A stretch of DNA of 64,000 bases from Calditrichales bacterium (GTDB taxonomy: Bacteria > Calditrichota > Calditrichia > Calditrichales > J004), in assembly GCA_965267575.1 (NCBI GenBank), contig OZ254086.1, positions 1,344,001-1,408,000 on the forward strand, given 5' to 3'. The notes beneath the pieces were generated by a model. That model worked only from the letters and a program-made list of their open reading frames with translations, searched no databases and was not told where the DNA came from. Each line of letters begins with the position of its first letter. Position 1 is the first letter of the stretch. The position numbers and the translations under genes were made by a program. Positions 45,305-63,188 of the stretch are shown in pieces.

Positions 45305-47122
45305 TCAGGTTTTTTTAAAAAGCAGGATTTTAAAAATACGAGGCCTTTTACGCTGCATATAGACGCTCTTGGAAAGGTGTTCCAGCAATTTCAGCTTGAG
45401 CGATTTGTCGTTTTCGGCCAGGTGCACCATAACATCATCGCCCGGCAGAATAACCGTTTCATGCTCCAGTTTTATTTCAGGGTTTTCCACCAGCAGGGCT
45501 ACTTTCCCGCCCTTTTCACATTGCGCCGCCAGATGCGCAAGGATTTCCGCGTGATTTTTCCAGAGATAGAAAAGACGGATGATGTCATCCTTTTTGCCCA
45601 TTAACTCCAGGCGGTTGATTGCGTCCTGAACATGGCGCGGTATTTTGGCAAACAAGCCCCGTTTTAAGCCCAGTTCACTTTCCAGCTGCTCTTTTTCCTC
45701 CTCGCTCATCGGTCTGCTGCCGATGATATTGGCCTCTTCCGCGCTTTTGTAGGCGCCCTTGCTGTTCAATATGGCGATCAAACGGCGGTCCTTTTCGAAA
45801 ACCCCGCGCAATGGCCAGGACGGTAAAACAGAAATAATGGCCGGATAGTTGCCTTCGGATTCGCTCATCACATCGCTGCAGCTTACAGTTGCCTCTCCCG
45901 TGGTTTTGCGGACAAAGGAGCGCCCTTTATGCAGGAGGAAAATATTGAAACAGATATCGAGAAGGTTCTTCTTGTACACTTCCATGAAGCGGATGGGCTC
46001 TTTTTTGCGCAAAGCCAGCGCCAGCGTGTTAACCAGTGCTGCAAAAAAGAGGCGGTTGACAGCTTCGTTGCGGGTCACAGCGGACATCTCGATTAAAAAC
46101 CGCGTAGCGGCAACAAACTTCAAAGTCATTTCATCGGGGGTGGCGTGGCCCAGCGTTTTAAGTCGCTTACGTTCTTCCGCCCAGAAAGAGAGGAACTGAC
46201 CTTCTGCGCTGTACAGGAAAAGATCTACCTGCGTGGCGGCACTGGCATTCATCAGCATCTTGATTTTACCCTGCATCTCGCCGATAAGCCGGTTGAACTC
46301 CTGGAAATCCACATGACCCTGAACGGCGTTTGCTGCTGCCAGCGCCTGCTGAATGGGATTTATGTCCAAGCCTATCATGTTTTGGCCGGCCAGCATGGCC
46401 TCCACCAAAATCATGCCTTCTCCGCAAAAAGGATTCAGCACGGCTGCATTTTCATCCGCGGCCAGGCTGTTTATCAATGCACGCAGCCAGCGTTTATCCG
46501 AGAAATCATGGACAGCATAACGGCGATCCAGCTGCAACGTGTAGTAATTGCCTTCGCCGGAGTAGGCGATCATTTCCGAAGGGTCTTTTGTGAAAGGCTT
46601 ATCCGGTTTATGCGAAAGTTCATCCTTTAAAATGCGCAGGTCCTGCTCTACTTCGGCCTCAAGCTGCGTGGTGCTGCCAATGTAAAAAGCACGGTCGAGA
46701 AAGTAGGCGTAGCTCCAGAAGCGATAGACGCGCCACAGGTAAATATTGAATTCCTGCAGGGGGCAATTCCTAAGCTCGTTGTTTAAAAAAGGCGGTTCGG
46801 GATCGAGAAGCTGCTGGAAAATGAAAAATTCTTTTATATAGGCCAGGCGACTCACCGCGCGGATCACATCAGGTAAATCTGTTCCGACCCACAAGTAGCC
46901 GTGGCGGCCGCGGCGGGGCAGGGAGTCGGTCAGTGCCTGCTGCAGGGGCAGGTCTTTTTCGACAATACGCTTTACTTCCGGTTGCTGGCTAAGCTGGAAA
47001 ATGTTATCAATAGCTGTTACCGGCCCGACCAGATGCTCGATTTCCCGTGCGGAAAGTTTTTCAACGGCGTCAGGATGTTCGTTGTGGTCGAAGATCTTAA
47101 AGAAAATAAACTTTCTGCGCAT
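45305..47122 (-). CDS. Amino-DNA-methyltransferase-like protein, motifs degenerate
   Basis: Motif I-like VLNPFCGEGMILVEA...GLDINP; the SPPY position reads SVLPSW; late GGKVALLVEN. Confidence 0.6.
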   Translation of the reverse strand: MRRKFIFFKIFDHNEHPDAVEKLSAREIEHLVGPVTAIDNIFQLSQQPEVKRIVEKDLPLQQALTDSLPRRGRHGYLWVGTDLPDVIRAVSRLAYIKEFFIFQQLLDPEPPFLNNELRNCPLQEFNIYLWRVYRFWSYAYFLDRAFYIGSTTQLEAEVEQDLRILKDELSHKPDKPFTKDPSEMIAYSGEGNYYTLQLDRRYAVHDFSDKRWLRALINSLAADENAAVLNPFCGEGMILVEAMLAGQNMIGLDINPIQQALAAANAVQGHVDFQEFNRLIGEMQGKIKMLMNASAATQVDLFLYSAEGQFLSFWAEERKRLKTLGHATPDEMTLKFVAATRFLIEMSAVTRNEAVNRLFFAALVNTLALALRKKEPIRFMEVYKKNLLDICFNIFLLHKGRSFVRKTTGEATVSCSDVMSESEGNYPAIISVLPSWPLRGVFEKDRRLIAILNSKGAYKSAEEANIIGSRPMSEEEKEQLESELGLKRGLFAKIPRHVQDAINRLELMGKKDDIIRLFYLWKNHAEILAHLAAQCEKGGKVALLVENPEIKLEHETVILPGDDVMVHLAENDKSLKLKLLEHLSKSVYMQRKRPRIFKILLFKKT

Positions 47123-57080: not shown

Positions 57081-57782
57081 ATGAAAGCCATTCTTGCCCT
57101 GAAAGCAATCGAAAAACGCTTTGAGAGCGCCGGGCGCTCATTACAGGTTCTCAACGACATCTCTTTTGAGATTGATCCCAAAACAAGCTGCGCCATTGTC
57201 GGCCCATCCGGCAGCGGCAAAACCACGCTGCTGGGAATTTGTGCAGGCTTGGAACGTCCCAGTTCGGGAAAAATTTCCCTGGCCGGTATGGAAATCAACA
57301 ACAAAAGCGAGGATGAGCTGGCCGCTCTGCGCAACCAGAAGGTCGGCTTTGTTTTCCAGAACTTCCAGCTGATGCCCACGTTGACCGCACTTGAAAATGT
57401 GATGGTACCGGCGGAGTTGCTGCAGCGCGATAATCCCCGTGAACGCGCCGTTGAGCTTTTGGGCCGCGTCGGGCTGGAGGACCGCCTCGATCATTATCCC
57501 GTTCAGCTCTCCGGCGGTGAGCAGCAGCGTGTGGCTTTAGCCCGCGCCTTTATCAACCAACCGGAAATACTTTTTGCCGATGAGCCCACCGGTAACCTCG
57601 ATGATGAAACCAGCCACACCGTGGAAGAGCTCCTTTTTGATTTGAACAGCACACAGGGCACAACCCTGATCCTTGTAACCCACGACCTGGAGCTGGCCCG
57701 GCGCTGTGACCGCGTGATCCGGCTGAAGGGTGGCCACATCGAAGAAGACACCCGTTCCGTGGAGCAGGAAAACTATGTCTGA
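57081..57782 (+). CDS. ABC transporter ATP-binding protein (YbbA-like)
   Basis: GPSGSGKTT, LSGGEQQR and ADEPTGNLD motifs. Confidence 0.95.
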   Translation: MKAILALKAIEKRFESAGRSLQVLNDISFEIDPKTSCAIVGPSGSGKTTLLGICAGLERPSSGKISLAGMEINNKSEDELAALRNQKVGFVFQNFQLMPTLTALENVMVPAELLQRDNPRERAVELLGRVGLEDRLDHYPVQLSGGEQQRVALARAFINQPEILFADEPTGNLDDETSHTVEELLFDLNSTQGTTLILVTHDLELARRCDRVIRLKGGHIEEDTRSVEQENYV

Positions 57783-60303
57783 TAAAATATCCTGGTCCTG
57801 GGCGGCACGCATGGCCTGGCGCGACAGTCGCAGCCGCCGCGGACGCTTTTTGCTTTTTGTCTCCTCCATCATGGTGGGCATTGCCGCGCTGGTTGCCATC
57901 GATTCTTTTCGCATTAACCTGGACGCCGCCGTAAATGAAGAGGCCAAAACCCTGCTCGGCGCCGACCTGGTGCTGCGTTCCAACCGCGCTTTTAATTATA
58001 ATGTAAACACCTTTTTGGACACCCTCTCCAACCCGGTCGTCCGTGAGATCAGCTTCAGCACGATGATCTACTTCCCGAAAACCGGGAACAGCCGCCTGGG
58101 ACGTCTGCGCGCCATCGAAGAGGGGTTTCCCTTTTACGGCTCGGTGAAAACCAATCCCGTGGGCGTGTATGAAAAGCTGGGCCAAAGCAATCATGTCTTG
58201 ATTGATGAAACGATGCTGGTGCAATACGACGCGCAACCGGGCGACACCGTGCGCATCGGCTACAGTACCTTTGAAATTGGCGGAGCTGTAAAGGCGGTCT
58301 CCGGCGAAACCGCTGCCGGTTCTACCATCGCGCCAATGGTGTTTTTACCCATGAGCGAGGTAGACAAAACCGGGCTGCTGCAATTCGGCTCCATCGCCAT
58401 TTACCGCGCCTACATCAAGTCGACCCCCGGACAGGACATAGATGCCTTTGTGGCGGCCAACGAAAATTTCTTTAAGGAAAACAGCGTCCGTTACCGCACC
58501 GTTGAATCACGCAAGCGCCAGTTGGGCCGGGTGATTGACAACCTCAACGCCTTTCTCAGCCTGATCGGTTTTTTTGCTCTGTTGCTTGGCGGCATCGGCG
58601 TGGCCAGCGCGGTGAATGTGCACGTGCGCCAGAAGCTGGACAGCGTAGCGATATTGCGTTCACTGGGAGGGGGCGCCTGGCAGGTCTTTGCCATCTACCT
58701 GATTCAAACGCTTTCTTTTGGATTTATCGGCGCGCTACTCGGTGTGGCCTTTGGCGTGGCCGTTCAGTTTGGCCTGCCGCTCATTTTCCAGAACTTTTTG
58801 CCGGTAACGGTGAACGTTTTTGTCGTGCCGTCGGCCTTGCTGCAGGGCCTGTTTGCCGGATTTTTTATGACCAGCCTGTTTACATTACTGCCGCTGGTTT
58901 CCCTGCGTCGCGTGCCGCCGTTGCGCAGTCTGCGTGCTTCGTACGAGGGCGAAAAAAACCGTGACCCGCTGCAATACCTTGTTCTTGTTTTACTGGGATT
59001 GTTTTTTCTGGCCTTTGTGGCCCTGCAGGTGAACAACTGGCAAACGGGCATCGTCTTTAGCCTGGCGTTACTTGTTGCCATCATTTTGTTCGGCTACAGC
59101 GCCCGTTTTGTAGTGCGACTGATCCGGCGCTTTTTCCCCAAGAGCTGGCCTTATGCCTGGCGCCAGGGTCTGGCCAACCTTTACCGTCCCAACAATCAAA
59201 GCTCTATTTTGATTTTATCACTGGGACTGGGTGCTTTCCTGATCAGTACGATGTTTTTGACACAGGACGCGCTGTTGCGCCAGGTCTCTTTCAGCGACGA
59301 AGGCGAGCGCCCCAACTTGGTGCTGTTCGATGTGCAAAGTGACCAGATTCAGGCCGTGGAAGATACACTACAATCTCGCGGATTACCGCTGCTACAGCAG
59401 GCGCCGATTGTGACCATGCGTTTGCAGGAAGTGCGTGATGAAGACGTGGTAGAGATGCGCAAAGACACCACCGACCGCTATGAAAAATGGGTTCTGAACA
59501 ACGAGCTGCGTGTGACCTACCGTGACTACCTGCAAGAGTCAGAAGAGCTGGTGGAAGGCAGTTTTCCGCGCACGGGCAGCGATACCATCTTCGTCTCCGT
59601 GGCCGATGGCCTGGTGGACGCGCTGGACCTGAAACTGGGCGATCGCATTGTCTACGATGTGCAGGGTGTACCCCTGGAAACCTACGTGGGCAGCATCCGC
59701 CGCGTAAACTGGCAGCAGTTCTCGCCCAACTTTCTCACCGTGTTTCCGCCGGGAGTGCTGGAAGCAGCGCCACAGTTTCACGTGGTTGTGACCCGGGTTT
59801 CTCCGCGTGAAAAAGCCGCCCAATTTCAACGGGCCATGGTGCAGGCTTTTCCCAATGTCTCTATCATAGACCTGGCGCTGGTGCTGCAAACCGTGGAAAA
59901 CGTGCTGGACCAGATCAGTTTTGTTATCCGTTTTATGGCCTCGTTTACAATCCTTACCGGCGTCATTGTTCTGATTGGCGCGTTGACAATAAGTCGTTTT
60001 CAGCGATTGACGGAGAGTGTCCTGCTGCGTACGCTGGGCGCCTCGAAGCAGATAGTGCGTCGCATTATGACGCTGGAGTATGTCTTTTTGGGAAGCCTGG
60101 CCGCGCTGCTGGGTATTTTAATGGCGCTGGCCACAAGCGCGCTGTTTACGGTGACGGTGTTTGATGTATTGTTCCAGCCGCCCTGGCTGGAGTTGGGTGG
60201 TTTGTTCGCGGCCCTTTGTCTGCTGACCGTCGCCATCGGCTGGCTCAACAGCCGCGGGATATTTGACCGCTCGCCGCTGGAAGTGCTAAGGCAGGAGGCG
60301 TAG
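57775..60303 (+). CDS. ABC transporter FtsX-type permease (YbbP-like)
   Basis: AWRD.R, LLGADL and two FtsX domains (AILRSLG, LLRTLGAS). Confidence 0.92.
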   Translation: MSDKISWSWAARMAWRDSRSRRGRFLLFVSSIMVGIAALVAIDSFRINLDAAVNEEAKTLLGADLVLRSNRAFNYNVNTFLDTLSNPVVREISFSTMIYFPKTGNSRLGRLRAIEEGFPFYGSVKTNPVGVYEKLGQSNHVLIDETMLVQYDAQPGDTVRIGYSTFEIGGAVKAVSGETAAGSTIAPMVFLPMSEVDKTGLLQFGSIAIYRAYIKSTPGQDIDAFVAANENFFKENSVRYRTVESRKRQLGRVIDNLNAFLSLIGFFALLLGGIGVASAVNVHVRQKLDSVAILRSLGGGAWQVFAIYLIQTLSFGFIGALLGVAFGVAVQFGLPLIFQNFLPVTVNVFVVPSALLQGLFAGFFMTSLFTLLPLVSLRRVPPLRSLRASYEGEKNRDPLQYLVLVLLGLFFLAFVALQVNNWQTGIVFSLALLVAIILFGYSARFVVRLIRRFFPKSWPYAWRQGLANLYRPNNQSSILILSLGLGAFLISTMFLTQDALLRQVSFSDEGERPNLVLFDVQSDQIQAVEDTLQSRGLPLLQQAPIVTMRLQEVRDEDVVEMRKDTTDRYEKWVLNNELRVTYRDYLQESEELVEGSFPRTGSDTIFVSVADGLVDALDLKLGDRIVYDVQGVPLETYVGSIRRVNWQQFSPNFLTVFPPGVLEAAPQFHVVVTRVSPREKAAQFQRAMVQAFPNVSIIDLALVLQTVENVLDQISFVIRFMASFTILTGVIVLIGALTISRFQRLTESVLLRTLGASKQIVRRIMTLEYVFLGSLAALLGILMALATSALFTVTVFDVLFQPPWLELGGLFAALCLLTVAIGWLNSRGIFDRSPLEVLRQEA

Positions 60304-60503
60304 TCCGGACTGCGATTCGTGTGATGGAATGATTTTGTGATTAGAATAAGGCCCAATCAGAGTCCGTCATGTAATCATCAAAATCATAGTTTATGACAAT
60401 TACCCCTGTCTGAACTATGATTCGTATGATGGTGTGATTTTGTGATTAGAAGATTTACAAAATCATAGTCCATCACATAATCCAAAAAATCAAGGTTCAG
60501 ACA
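60302..60503. repeat. Two tandem long-hairpin repeat units (60302-60398, 60407-60503)
   Basis: Each unit starts with a TGTCTGAACTATGATT-like end and finishes with its reverse-complement-like end, with 4x TGAT on the left arm and about 4x ATCA on the right. Confidence 0.92.
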
Positions 60504-60888
60504 ATTTTCTTTGCACCCGCTTAAACTGCAAACTCCTGCTGCCGAAATTAATCAATAGTCCTACTTCCATATTATACGCTTCCAGGTAGTTAATCGCTTG
60601 CGCCAGGTGTACATGTTCCAGTTGAATAATAGCTTTTAGCTCAACCATTATCTTGTCATCAACAAAAAAATCAACCCGTCGTGTGCCGATGTTTTGATCA
60701 TCATAATAAATGGGCATTTCCATCTCACGCTCAAAAGAAAGCCCCTGCTTGGTCATCTCAATCGCAAGGGCGCGCTGATAGATGACCTCCTGAAATCCAT
60801 TGCCCAACGTTGAATGCACTTTCATCGCGCAGCCAATGATTCTGGATGTTAAGTCGGAGTATTTGTATTCCGGGTTAATGTTACTCAT
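60490..60888 (-). CDS. GxxExxY protein (PD-(D/E)xK nuclease fold)
   Basis: 132 aa; IIGCAMKVHSTLGNGFQEVIYQRAL, RVDFFVDDKIMVELKA, AQAINYL and GLLINFG motifs. Confidence 0.95.
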   Translation of the reverse strand: MSNINPEYKYSDLTSRIIGCAMKVHSTLGNGFQEVIYQRALAIEMTKQGLSFEREMEMPIYYDDQNIGTRRVDFFVDDKIMVELKAIIQLEHVHLAQAINYLEAYNMEVGLLINFGSRSLQFKRVQRKLSEP

Positions 60889-60889
60889 G

Positions 60890-61110
60890 TGTCTAAACTT
60901 TGATTGTTGGTTGAAGCATTTGTCTGAACTATGATTCGTGTGATGAAATGATTTTGTGATTAGAAGATTTCTCCAATCACAGTCCGTCACAAAATCACAG
61001 TTTAGACAATCTTCCTGTCTGACCATGATTCCTGTGATGGTGTGATTTTATGATTAGAAGATTTCCTAATCACAGTCCATCACGTAATCAAATAAATCAT
61101 AGTTCAGACT
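60890..61110. repeat. Half end (60890-60905) plus two tandem long-hairpin units (60921-61008, 61016-61110)
   Basis: Same family as 60302-60503; shared core TGATTTT(G/A)TGATTAGAAGATTT...AATCACAGTCC. Confidence 0.92.
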
Positions 61111-62224
61111 ACTTCAAATTCTCAGGATTCAGCCCCTTCAAATCATCCACCACAAACAGACCGCCTTTGCGGATCAGTGTGTCATCAAAGTAGATTTCGC
61201 CGCCGCCATACTCCGCTGTCTGGATGCAGACCATGTCCCAGTGGATGTTGCTGCGGTTGCCGTTGTCGGCATCCTCGTAGGCCTGGCCCGGTGTGAAGTG
61301 GAAAGAGCCGGCGATCTTCTCGTCAAACAAAATATCCAGCATCGGTTTGGTGATCCAGGGGTTAAAACCGATGGCAAATTCACCGATGTAGCGCGAACCG
61401 TCGTCGGTATCTAAAATTTCGTTGAGGCGTGTGCTGTTGCTGGCGCTGGCTTCAATAATCTTGCCATCCTTAAATGTGAGCTTGATGTTGCTGAACACCG
61501 TCCCCTGGTAGATCGTATCGGCACTGTAACGTAGGGTGCCATTTACCGAATCACGCACGGGCGCTGTAAACACCTCGCCATCGGGAATGTTGTGGCTGCC
61601 GGCGCAGGGCACCACGGGGATATCCTTGATGCTGAAACGCAGGTCGGTGCCGGGACCCTTGATGTAGACTTTGTCTGTCTTTTGCATGCGTTCCTTCAGT
61701 TTTTTCGCGGCAGTGGCCATCTTCTTGTAATCAAGCGTACAAACGTCGAAATAAAACTGCTCGAAAGCCTCGCTGCTTTTCTGCGCCTGCTGGGCCATTG
61801 AAGGCGTCGGCCAGCGCAGTACGCACCACTTGGTTTTGGGCACGCGGATATTGAAATGAACCGGCTTCAGCCAATGCTCCTCGTACAAGCGCATCTTGTC
61901 GGAAGGCACATCGGACATCTCCGAGATGTTGTAGCTGCCGCGCAAACCAAGATAGGCCTGCACCTGCTTCATGCGATAAGCCTCCACATCGGCCGTAGCC
62001 AGCATCGTTTTTTCATCGCCGTCACGCAGCAGTTCGCGCATCAGCGTGTTGTTTTTGATTGTCAACAGGGGAATGCCGCCGGCTTGCCTTACCCGCCGTA
62101 TCAGCGCCACTATGAATTCCTTTGGAATGTCAATGGCCTCGATGAGAATTTTTTCCCCTTTTTGCAAATTTGTAGAATGGCCGATTAATACATTTGCAAG
62201 TTTGTCAAAGCGTGGGTCATGCAT
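61109..62224 (-). CDS. Aminopeptidase, M29 family (AmpS/AmpT-like)
   Basis: NIPDGEVFTAP, IGEFAIG, LFDEKI.GSFH and SNIHWD motifs. Confidence 0.93.
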   Translation of the reverse strand: MHDPRFDKLANVLIGHSTNLQKGEKILIEAIDIPKEFIVALIRRVRQAGGIPLLTIKNNTLMRELLRDGDEKTMLATADVEAYRMKQVQAYLGLRGSYNISEMSDVPSDKMRLYEEHWLKPVHFNIRVPKTKWCVLRWPTPSMAQQAQKSSEAFEQFYFDVCTLDYKKMATAAKKLKERMQKTDKVYIKGPGTDLRFSIKDIPVVPCAGSHNIPDGEVFTAPVRDSVNGTLRYSADTIYQGTVFSNIKLTFKDGKIIEASASNSTRLNEILDTDDGSRYIGEFAIGFNPWITKPMLDILFDEKIAGSFHFTPGQAYEDADNGNRSNIHWDMVCIQTAEYGGGEIYFDDTLIRKGGLFVVDDLKGLNPENLK

Positions 62225-62366: not shown

Positions 62367-63188
62367 TTACTCGCCCGTAATTACTTCACCCTTCTCGTAA
62401 TCATATTCTGAGCCCATAGTGCTGTGCGGTATGGCAAAAACGAGAATCAGGATCACCGCTGCGGCGACAAATAGAGTGTTACGGCGTTGTTTTAAATTCG
62501 CAACTATGGCAATCGCCCAAACGATTACAGCGAGCAACGTTTTATTGTCCGTTAAATCCCAGCCAAACGGCACGCCTGTCCAGAAAGCATCGAAGGCGTA
62601 CTTTTGCACAATGGGTCCCAGGATGAGCCCGCCGATAAACAGGACGACCAGGGTACTCAGGGCCATGCGCCAGGCCAGTGGATGCTTGCGTAGCGCCAGC
62701 AACCCGCACCACGTGGAGAGCCACAATCCGACAAACATGAACACAATATGACTTGCCAGCACCGGCGTAGGAACGGCGCCCTTAAAACGGATCACCACCG
62801 GGTTATCCCGGGCAACTTCTGCCCGGTCATTGCCATCCTGCAACACAATGTAATAGGCCAGCTTGCCGGCAGCCGGTTGCTCGGGCAGCAGGGCGCTGAG
62901 CGTGTCGCGGGTGCGAATAAACGGAGCCGCGCTAAATTCATCATTCGTGGGATAGCGCTTGTAAAAAAGCGTCGCTGAAACCGACGTATCCGGCGCCAGG
63001 AGCGGAATCAGGCAGGGCGTGCCTTTTTCATGGCTGCGCGGAAGCTCAAACGTAAAGGACGTATTGTTAAGTGTAACCGAAACGTTTTTCTCCCAGGTAG
63101 GTCCGGTTGCCCGCTGGTAGTAAAGTGTGGCCAGTACAATTATAAGTGCCACTATCGCCCAGGGCCAGGATTTTTTTTGATTTTCCAT
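62367..63188 (-). CDS. Conserved hypothetical membrane protein
   Basis: N-terminal TM, extracytoplasmic domain and 4 TMs; YYQRATGPT, WTGVPFGWDLTDNKTL and IPHS..GSE. Confidence 0.75.
   Translation of the reverse strand: MENQKKSWPWAIVALIIVLATLYYQRATGPTWEKNVSVTLNNTSFTFELPRSHEKGTPCLIPLLAPDTSVSATLFYKRYPTNDEFSAAPFIRTRDTLSALLPEQPAAGKLAYYIVLQDGNDRAEVARDNPVVIRFKGAVPTPVLASHIVFMFVGLWLSTWCGLLALRKHPLAWRMALSTLVVLFIGGLILGPIVQKYAFDAFWTGVPFGWDLTDNKTLLAVIVWAIAIVANLKQRRNTLFVAAAVILILVFAIPHSTMGSEYDYEKGEVITGE

Follow-up and report, generated by a model that had tools for sequence, protein, structure and literature searches.

A hairpin array around a GxxExxY nuclease-fold gene in a Calditrichales genome and inverted tandem-motif arms at GxxExxY loci of many phyla

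Repetitive extragenic palindromes (REPs) are imperfect palindromes of ~20–40 nucleotides (nt) with a conserved 5′ tetranucleotide that lie near the 3′ ends of genes, and the gene of the cognate Y1 (HUH) transposase, the REP-associated tyrosine transposase (RAYT), is flanked by its own repeats. MITEs (miniature inverted-repeat transposable elements) are gene-less units of two terminal inverted repeats that outnumber the gene-bearing autonomous insertion sequence, while the foldback (FB) elements of Drosophila consist of long inverted arms of tandem short sub-repeats, mostly non-coding and only in a few cases with open reading frames (ORFs) in the loop. Integron attC sites are imperfect palindromes of 60–140 nt with AAC...GTT ends and the core sites RYYYAAC and GTTRRRY, and their hairpin lies only downstream of the ORF. 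Here we describe a locus in a 64,000-nt stretch of a Calditrichales genome (contig OZ254086.1, positions 1,344,001–1,408,000; hereafter the window), in which a gene of the GxxExxY family is surrounded by long hairpins. Its closest documented relative is the ORF-bearing intervening sequence (IVS) of 23S rRNA, which passages of one study describe as having a 28-bp terminal-repeat stem, being excised by RNase III and being regarded as selfish, with an unknown mechanism of movement (PMC4990558). On balance, we judge it probable that the locus is an ‘array form’ member of a widespread family of very small insertable IVS-like or foldback-like cassettes, surrounded by gene-less derivatives; such a family seems not to have been described before.

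The gap between the gene of an FtsX/MacB-type ATP-binding cassette permease on the left (57730–60303, + strand; Pfam FtsX 9.1e-20, MacB_PCD 4e-09) and an M29 aminopeptidase gene on the right (61109–62224, − strand; Pfam Peptidase_M29 1.6e-54) is filled by four palindromic units of 88–97 nt and a 16-nt half end, arranged around the GxxExxY gene (60490–60888, − strand; 132 amino acids) exactly where a first-pass annotation, made from the letters alone, had placed them. The permease stop codon TAG (60301–60303) shares 2 nt with unit 1 (60302–60398, +; nhmmer 77–91 bits), and the aminopeptidase stop codon shares 2 nt with the right end of unit 4 (61016–61110, +; 80–91 bits). Unit 2 (60407–60503, +; 78–90 bits) follows unit 1 after 8 nt. 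On the other side of the gene, the half end (60890–60905, +), which represents a unit terminus only and pairs with the right end of unit 3 at 94% complementarity (inverted repeat I9), is separated by 15 nt from unit 3 (60921–61008, +; 88 nt; 67–79 bits), whose right arm is shorter by one motif period and which lies 7 nt from unit 4.

The units share 73–85% pairwise identity and are AT-rich and internally periodic, with loops of only 10–25 nt that vary between units. Units 2–4 carry TGAT at unit positions 12, 21, 29 and 37 (spacing 9, 8 and 8), and the opposite arm holds two to four exact ATCA motifs per unit. Unit termini read TCTGAAC and GTTCAGA; unit 2, a full palindrome, has the termini TGTCTGAAC...GTTCAGACA. 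Upon single-strand folding, units 2–4 pair end to end on both strands, with z between −3.0 and −4.6 (−3.7 on + and −4.6 on − for unit 2, −4.6 and −3.1 for unit 3, −3.0 and −4.1 for unit 4), and 0–1 of 200 shuffles folded as well. The first-pass annotation had described every unit as an imperfect palindrome with four TGAT motifs at 8–9-nt spacing. This description fits units 2–4 but not unit 1, a degenerate copy that has lost the first TGAT and, by erosion, its termini, and that pairs in the inner stem only (z −0.9).

The gene product matches PF13366 (PDDEXK_3; 6.2e-41, 139.9 bits, cut-off 22) and TIGR04256 (1e-42, 145.2 bits, cut-off 35) and retains the PD-(D/E)xK fold residues D74 and E84-x-K86, as had been proposed. 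In a comparison of 59 sequences, G32, E35 and Y38 were invariant and D74, E84 and K86 were conserved in at least 90%. The gene abuts the array on both sides, its start codon ATG (60888–60886, −) lying 1 nt from the half end and its last four codons and stop (LSEP-stop) lying inside the right terminus of unit 2. The family spans many bacterial and archaeal phyla, and the portion of a 2012 superfamily survey that covers PF13366 gives its function as ‘Unknown’ (PMC3424549). Neither sequence nor profile searches returned a PDB relative. In the literature covered (PubMed Central open access and bioRxiv), GxxExxY is named in three papers, none of which concerns its biology, and no description of a GxxExxY–repeat association was found, subscription literature and database family notes lying outside this search. 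PADLOC gave no match for the window protein, a second GxxExxY paralogue or one PF05635 protein, and assignment to a known defence family was rejected on that basis. In agreement with the first-pass annotation, the ORFs scanned at 45–64 kb of the window contain no transposase, integrase or cas domain; they carry metabolic, transport or other non-mobile domains, or no Pfam domain. Two ORFs of the window, at 62367–63188 (−; 273 amino acids) and 45305–47122 (−; 605 amino acids), have no Pfam match at E ≤ 1e-4.

PF13366 was found in 30 of the 31 genomes searched, that is, the source genome (G000) and 30 order-level relatives; G002 (96% complete) has no match for PF13366 or PF05635. By eye, inverted arms with three or four motif copies ~9 nt apart are present at almost every GxxExxY locus fetched from the relatives. 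For counting, we used a detector that calls a 6-mer (at most one mismatch) in at least three chained copies 7–12 nt apart, together with at least three chained reverse-complement copies, within 300 nt of the gene. It was positive at 18 of 29 GxxExxY loci in the order-level relatives and at 68 of 80 further loci obtained by scanning species-representative genomes with a 13-sequence alignment as query; the latter belong to Chloroflexota, Planctomycetota, Acidobacteriota, Verrucomicrobiota, Proteobacteria, Bacteroidota, Cyanobacteria and two archaea. Controls remained far lower (12/545 shuffled flanks, 11/400 random positions of the source genome and 4/30 PIN-gene loci of the relatives). An earlier detector based on exact 5-mers, specific but insensitive, found 6/29 and 30/80 loci versus 0/580 and 2/1600 shuffles, and inverted-repeat alignment exceeded z = 5 in 43/80 and 7/29 flank sets versus 1/109 gene bodies. 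Counts of the motif CRCNRAR were discarded as a test, as they reached the threshold at 89 of 94 loci and also at 266 of 1000 random positions. Across genomes, the GxxExxY gene and the hairpins go together, and the recurrence of repeats at GxxExxY flanks in other taxa, which the first-pass annotation had listed as a check, was borne out.

The commonest form across phyla, here called canonical, consists of a terminus (e.g., TTAACC), three CAC(A/G)GAG-type motifs, the ORF and the exact inverse of this arm. Such a cassette occupies the short gap between two host ORFs, and its arms adjoin the start and stop codons of its own gene. Two topologies were seen, with the gene either in the loop or at the base of a hairpin. 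In one relative (G010:C7:70047–71335; L036), three GxxExxY copies with equal scores follow each other in tandem every 469 bp, those inspected being separated by hairpins, an arrangement that looks like local amplification of the whole cassette. At three further loci (L021 in G009, L028 in G015 and L200 from a metagenome), cassettes of the window clade lie, by eye, between ORFs with type I restriction-modification-like ends; in L021 and L028 the upstream ORF continues into the arm, which provides its final residues and stop codon.

The type of arm follows the clade of the protein, with no exception in our sample. GNGFQE is the motif of the clade to which the window protein belongs. At least two window-type termini, (T/G)AAC-NN-TGAT or (T/G)AAC-NN-CAGAT, within 300 nt were found at 9/9 loci of this clade versus 0/94 loci of the GPGLLE clade, four of the nine having been found via the terminus pattern itself, which leaves only five independent loci; controls gave 0/30, 0/28 and 1/1000. 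This is the protein–repeat correspondence for which the first-pass annotation had suggested looking. In a metagenome scan, the unit was present in 36 of 80 fetched pattern hits, and a GxxExxY gene lay within 1.5 kb in 4 of these 36 versus none of the 44 hits without a unit. All four metagenomic genes are of the window clade and are directly flanked by arms in the canonical form. Furthermore, a covariance model of the unit found matches in 11 of 13 relatives with a window-clade gene versus 4 of 18 without one (Fisher p ~0.001, a value that overstates the case because the genomes are kin and not independent). In the closest orthologues, 82–88% identical to the window protein (G015, G028, G007 and G006), such hairpins abut the gene as they do in the window.

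A profile of the units identified nine full copies at five loci of the 4.73-Mb source genome, in addition to four partial copies elsewhere. Four of the nine full copies are those at the window locus; dispersed solo copies, for which the first-pass annotation had proposed a search, are present. Full copies lie close to ORF ends, with the stops of the flanking genes 0–25 nt from the units, and no gene remnants were found beside the solo units of this genome. The source genome encodes six PF13366 genes, of which five have inverted tandem-motif arms by eye, with a motif that differs by locus: TGATT at the window locus, hairpins of the CACAGAG type to either side of the 0.804-Mb gene, arms of the CATGAAG type at 2.261 Mb, and CGCAAAGA-type arms directly around each gene of a tandem pair near 4.494 Mb, where the ATG lies within the last repeat. 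Unrelated genes lie in the 1.9 kb that separate this pair from a partial TGATT unit, and the relation to the TGATT repeat family is therefore not one of simple adjacency.

Presence and absence of an orthologous array could be followed in the sister genus (g8). In G011, a 1.65-kb hairpin array with a GxxExxY gene, whose protein is 76% identical to that of the window, separates a B12-binding-domain gene from a RadC gene. The same junction measures about 95, 200 and 270 nt in G022, G014 and G029, without these hairpins, and holds a Fic gene in G018. The array and gene of G011 are an insertion-type polymorphism relative to the three congeners. The B12-binding-domain/RadC junction (L025) is a hot spot in this genus. 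Eight same-family relatives hold the aminopeptidase of the window locus (72–77% identity), with other neighbours and no hairpins, and four sequencing runs contained a source-like contig and short unrelated pieces only, with no empty site. The empty permease–aminopeptidase site that the first-pass annotation proposed to look for was therefore replaced, as evidence of insertion, by the polymorphism of an orthologous array. Arrays elsewhere are tandem duplications of a hairpin and its adjacent spacer; in G006, the spacer is a 44-nt remnant of the 3′ end of the gene.

In the cassette reading, the basic unit consists of one small ORF, here for a GxxExxY PD-(D/E)xK nuclease, between two inverted arms, each with three or four tandem copies of a short motif at a 7–12-nt period; in the window clade these are TGAT-type motifs behind a conserved (T/G)AAC terminus. 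The cassette sets a small ORF for a nucleic-acid-binding or -cutting protein between lineage-specific arms. The four 88–97-nt units of the window would be MITE-like derivatives that lack the gene and consist of the two arms fused directly; such units disperse to gene 3′ ends and multiply locally by tandem duplication. The nuclease could recognize its own arms by their conserved terminus or by their periodic motifs, either as an extruded hairpin or cruciform or as duplex, and nick or cut there; a further copy of the cassette, or of a gene-less unit, might then arise at another site through host repair or replication. Pairing of the arms in read-through transcripts could produce a long stem removable by RNase III, as in the 23S rRNA IVS, and host genes would thereby tolerate a cassette beside or between them at little cost. 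Even if the locus is such a cassette, the role of the nuclease as the driver of movement is a tentative proposal.

Described systems each share some features with the locus and differ from it in others. Like the 23S rRNA IVS, as it is presented in the passages cited above, the canonical cassette places a small ORF inside a stem of terminal inverted repeats; moreover, the ORF family of the IVS, PF05635, has arms of the same build in the source genome and its relatives. Unlike the IVS, the window element is located between a permease and an aminopeptidase gene and not in a 23S rRNA helix, its cargo is a PD-(D/E)xK nuclease, its arms consist of tandem short motifs, and gene-less units are dispersed. 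MITEs are matched in the presence of terminal inverted repeats and in gene-less units that outnumber the gene-bearing copy; they differ in that here the only gene-bearing copies encode PF13366 and no known transposase, and that the arms are built of tandem sub-repeats. Target-site duplications were not seen in the 5-nt flanks of the nine window-type copies. The defining feature of FB elements is also found here, namely inverted arms of tandem sub-repeats with mostly non-coding copies, but FB elements are eukaryotic, far larger and encode unrelated proteins.

A REP/RAYT-like arrangement had been suggested for the window by the first-pass annotation, and part of this suggestion holds. The units are dispersed extragenically near gene 3′ ends and also flank a cognate gene, here and at the orthologues; the repeat type is specific to the gene lineage; gene-less copies are dispersed; and an insertion polymorphism exists. 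However, arms of the same build surround PF05635 genes, two relatives have the hairpins without the cognate gene (see below), the flanked gene is PF13366 and not a Y1 HUH gene, and the window units are 88–97 nt long with four periodic TGAT motifs per arm. A REP/RAYT system proper was rejected for the locus: the five Y1 transposase (PF01797) genes of the source genome are located elsewhere (2490652–2490996, 1198105–1198452, 2255819–2256163, 2815871–2816215 and 2428323–2428619), with other short GC-rich palindromes, and none has these hairpins. These genes are of RAYT-like size, with open frames of 155–168 amino acids, and each has its own GC-rich palindromes repeated on both sides; the five loci have the appearance of true REP/RAYT systems present alongside the tandem-motif hairpins. 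Integron attC arrays likewise combine a small ORF with an imperfect palindrome in hairpin-and-ORF arrays, and the window termini TCTGAAC and GTTCAGA match the attC core sites at 5 of 7 positions by eye, but in canonical copies an arm stands on each side of the ORF and the motif build is periodic. An integron array was rejected because of these two-sided arms and because no recombinase domain occurs in the scanned ORFs at 45–64 kb of the window, the whole genome not having been searched for IntI.

Several observations weigh against the cassette interpretation. In the window itself, the GxxExxY ORF is placed between complete hairpins and not in a loop; the ORF inside an inverted-repeat stem is a feature of the canonical relatives. 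One of the six paralogues in the source genome, a divergent copy at 1.019 Mb, has no arms, and a GxxExxY gene is lacking within 1.5 kb of 32 of the 36 metagenomic units. The relatives G010 and G013 have 63 and 66 matches to the unit model (both strands counted) without any window-clade gene, and the copies inspected are solo units. A target-site duplication could not be made out in the 5-nt flanks of any of the nine copies, and empty/filled pairs are too distant for base-level comparison. The window junction has no clean empty site among the relatives compared, and as arrays elsewhere grow by tandem duplication, the four units of the window need not represent four insertions. Pairing of the terminal 16-bp helix holds in 90.7% of cells, versus 26–43% with the partner slid, but it is kept mainly via sequence conservation; covariation is not above that of shuffles, of which 54/500 reach it. 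RNAalifold returned no consensus structure for 25 units, and arm mismatches on the sense strand of 53 cassettes comprise 92 G:T versus 114 A:C, that is, no G:U bias. The arms therefore behave like DNA inverted repeats and not like a selected sense-RNA stem. The remaining points on this side concern PF05635 genes and ordinary ORFs with arms of the same build and bear on the leading alternative.

According to that alternative, which we regard as possible though rather doubtful, the hairpins are a self-standing repeat family moved by something else, and GxxExxY genes, like Avd-like genes, are passengers or parasites that land in or beside palindromes, for instance by homing-type insertion at the symmetry centre or at the hairpin base. 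The two topologies, gene in the loop or at the base, would fit such landings. PF05635 proteins are characterized in parts of one report as four-helix-bundle proteins of the IVS protein family related to Avd (PMC10053308). Their genes have no nuclease fold, yet the detector found the same architecture, with motifs of their own, at 26 of 28 PF05635 loci in the relatives, and by eye such arms are present at 4/4 PF05635 genes of the source genome. To our knowledge, PF05635 too is without an assigned function, except for the Avd proteins of diversity-generating retroelements. The four genes in the source genome (663384–663695, 665747–666055, 4661404–4661706 and 1528549–1528857; L040–L043) are associated with the inverted motifs AGTCTTG, GTGTTA, GGGAATT (period 7) and GATCATGATC. 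GxxExxY and PF05635 cassettes are often found side by side on one contig; islands in which the two are 1–2 kb apart occur in G017:C47, G027:C209, G029:C14, G022:C50, G028:C118, G009:C204 and G018:C261.

Hairpins also occur with no such cargo at all. The source genome contains dozens of empty hairpins of several motif types; a 5-mer chain scan counted 77 pairs in 46 clusters, versus 2 pairs after shuffling of the genome. GTGTTA-type arms also enclose at least two ordinary ORFs. These ORFs (285433–286499 and 3223453–3224713; 326 and 397 amino acids) share the motif type of one PF05635 gene. Near-perfect tandem arrays of 7–8-nt units in 6–7 copies lie at gene ends at 1863473–1863525, 4685378–4685418 and 234450–234494, with no obvious inverted partner nearby. 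A precedent for hairpins without a cognate gene comes from Xanthomonas, where parts of one report describe 70–75 convergent inverted pairs of tandem GGGAATC heptamers in each of two genomes, with no gene link (PMC4692102); the GGGAATT heptamer at one PF05635 gene is close to this repeat. TAACTGA forms a further set of intergenic tandem heptamer repeats, as passages of another report show (PMC4679880). Both are similar to the arms described here in being intergenic tandem motifs of ~7 nt, but the portions of these two sources discuss them as quadruplex-forming or regulatory and make no link to GxxExxY or PF05635 cassettes (PMC4692102, PMC4679880). The gene-less richness of G010 and G013 favours self-standing hairpins as well. 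Against this explanation stand the arm type, which tracks the protein clade without exception in the sample, and the presence of hairpins, which tracks the presence of the gene (11/13 versus 4/18 relatives). Moreover, no other candidate enzyme is linked to the hairpins, the five Y1 genes having different palindromes.

A second alternative, which we consider unlikely, is that the arms are cis-acting RNA structures: pairing of the untranslated regions would close the ORF in a stem for control of translation or stability or for RNase III release, and solo units would be terminator or stabilizer hairpins at gene 3′ ends. Consistent with this, the arms abut start and stop codons, the units lie 0–25 nt from the stops of flanking genes, the 5′ arm is by eye purine-rich and Shine–Dalgarno-like in many phyla, and the IVS offers a precedent with RNase III in the passages cited (PMC4990558). 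A conceivable role of the arms is that of Shine–Dalgarno and anti-Shine–Dalgarno sequences. The missing wobble bias on the sense strand and the covariation at shuffle level speak against the RNA alternative, and the units fold equally well on both strands. A simple terminator scan predicted three sites, all of them outside the units. Dispersal to new loci and presence/absence polymorphism are not explained by an RNA function alone. Searches against Rfam gave nothing above the gathering score, only sub-threshold matches to microRNA precursors, which are generic hairpins, and a known RNA family was rejected accordingly.

The two remaining explanations are much weaker. A chance neighbourhood of an ordinary REP or MITE array and an unrelated small gene would suit the fact that most unit copies are not beside a GxxExxY gene, but it is highly improbable given an enrichment above every control and a GxxExxY stop codon that lies inside a unit. 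Equally remote is a nucleic-acid-guided system with transcripts of the hairpins as guides for the nuclease, a role for which the first-pass annotation had put the hairpins forward: the loops do vary between units, but they are only 10–25 nt long, the sole PD-(D/E)xK assignment of the flanked gene in Pfam is PF13366 and not an RNA-guided nuclease family of the CRISPR or TnpB/IscB type, Rfam adds nothing above the gathering score, and we found no evidence for a guide-RNA role.

In summary, PF13366 and PF05635 share one stereotyped packaging: lineage-specific inverted tandem-motif arms, inserted against host genes and polymorphic between species. This turns two annotation dead ends into a testable question, namely what moves the cassettes and what the arms do. 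It also offers a likely origin for the ORF-bearing 23S rRNA IVS and for many ‘orphan’ intergenic hairpins and tandem 7–9-mers, and it accounts for the spurious small ORFs and the breaks in assemblies that occur at such repeats. We further put forward, as a possibility less likely than not, that GxxExxY proteins are the mobility enzymes of an unrecognized class of prokaryotic foldback transposons, in which a PD-(D/E)xK nuclease of ~125 amino acids would read the tandem-motif arms of its own lineage as extruded hairpins or cruciforms and mobilize its own cassette as well as the gene-less hairpins. If so, cassettes with Avd-like four-helix-bundle genes would form a second branch, parallel to this one or dependent on it, and would bind arms of this kind too, the ORF-bearing rRNA IVS and the inverted tandem heptamers of many genomes would be explained, and two very large protein families of ‘unknown’ function would acquire one.

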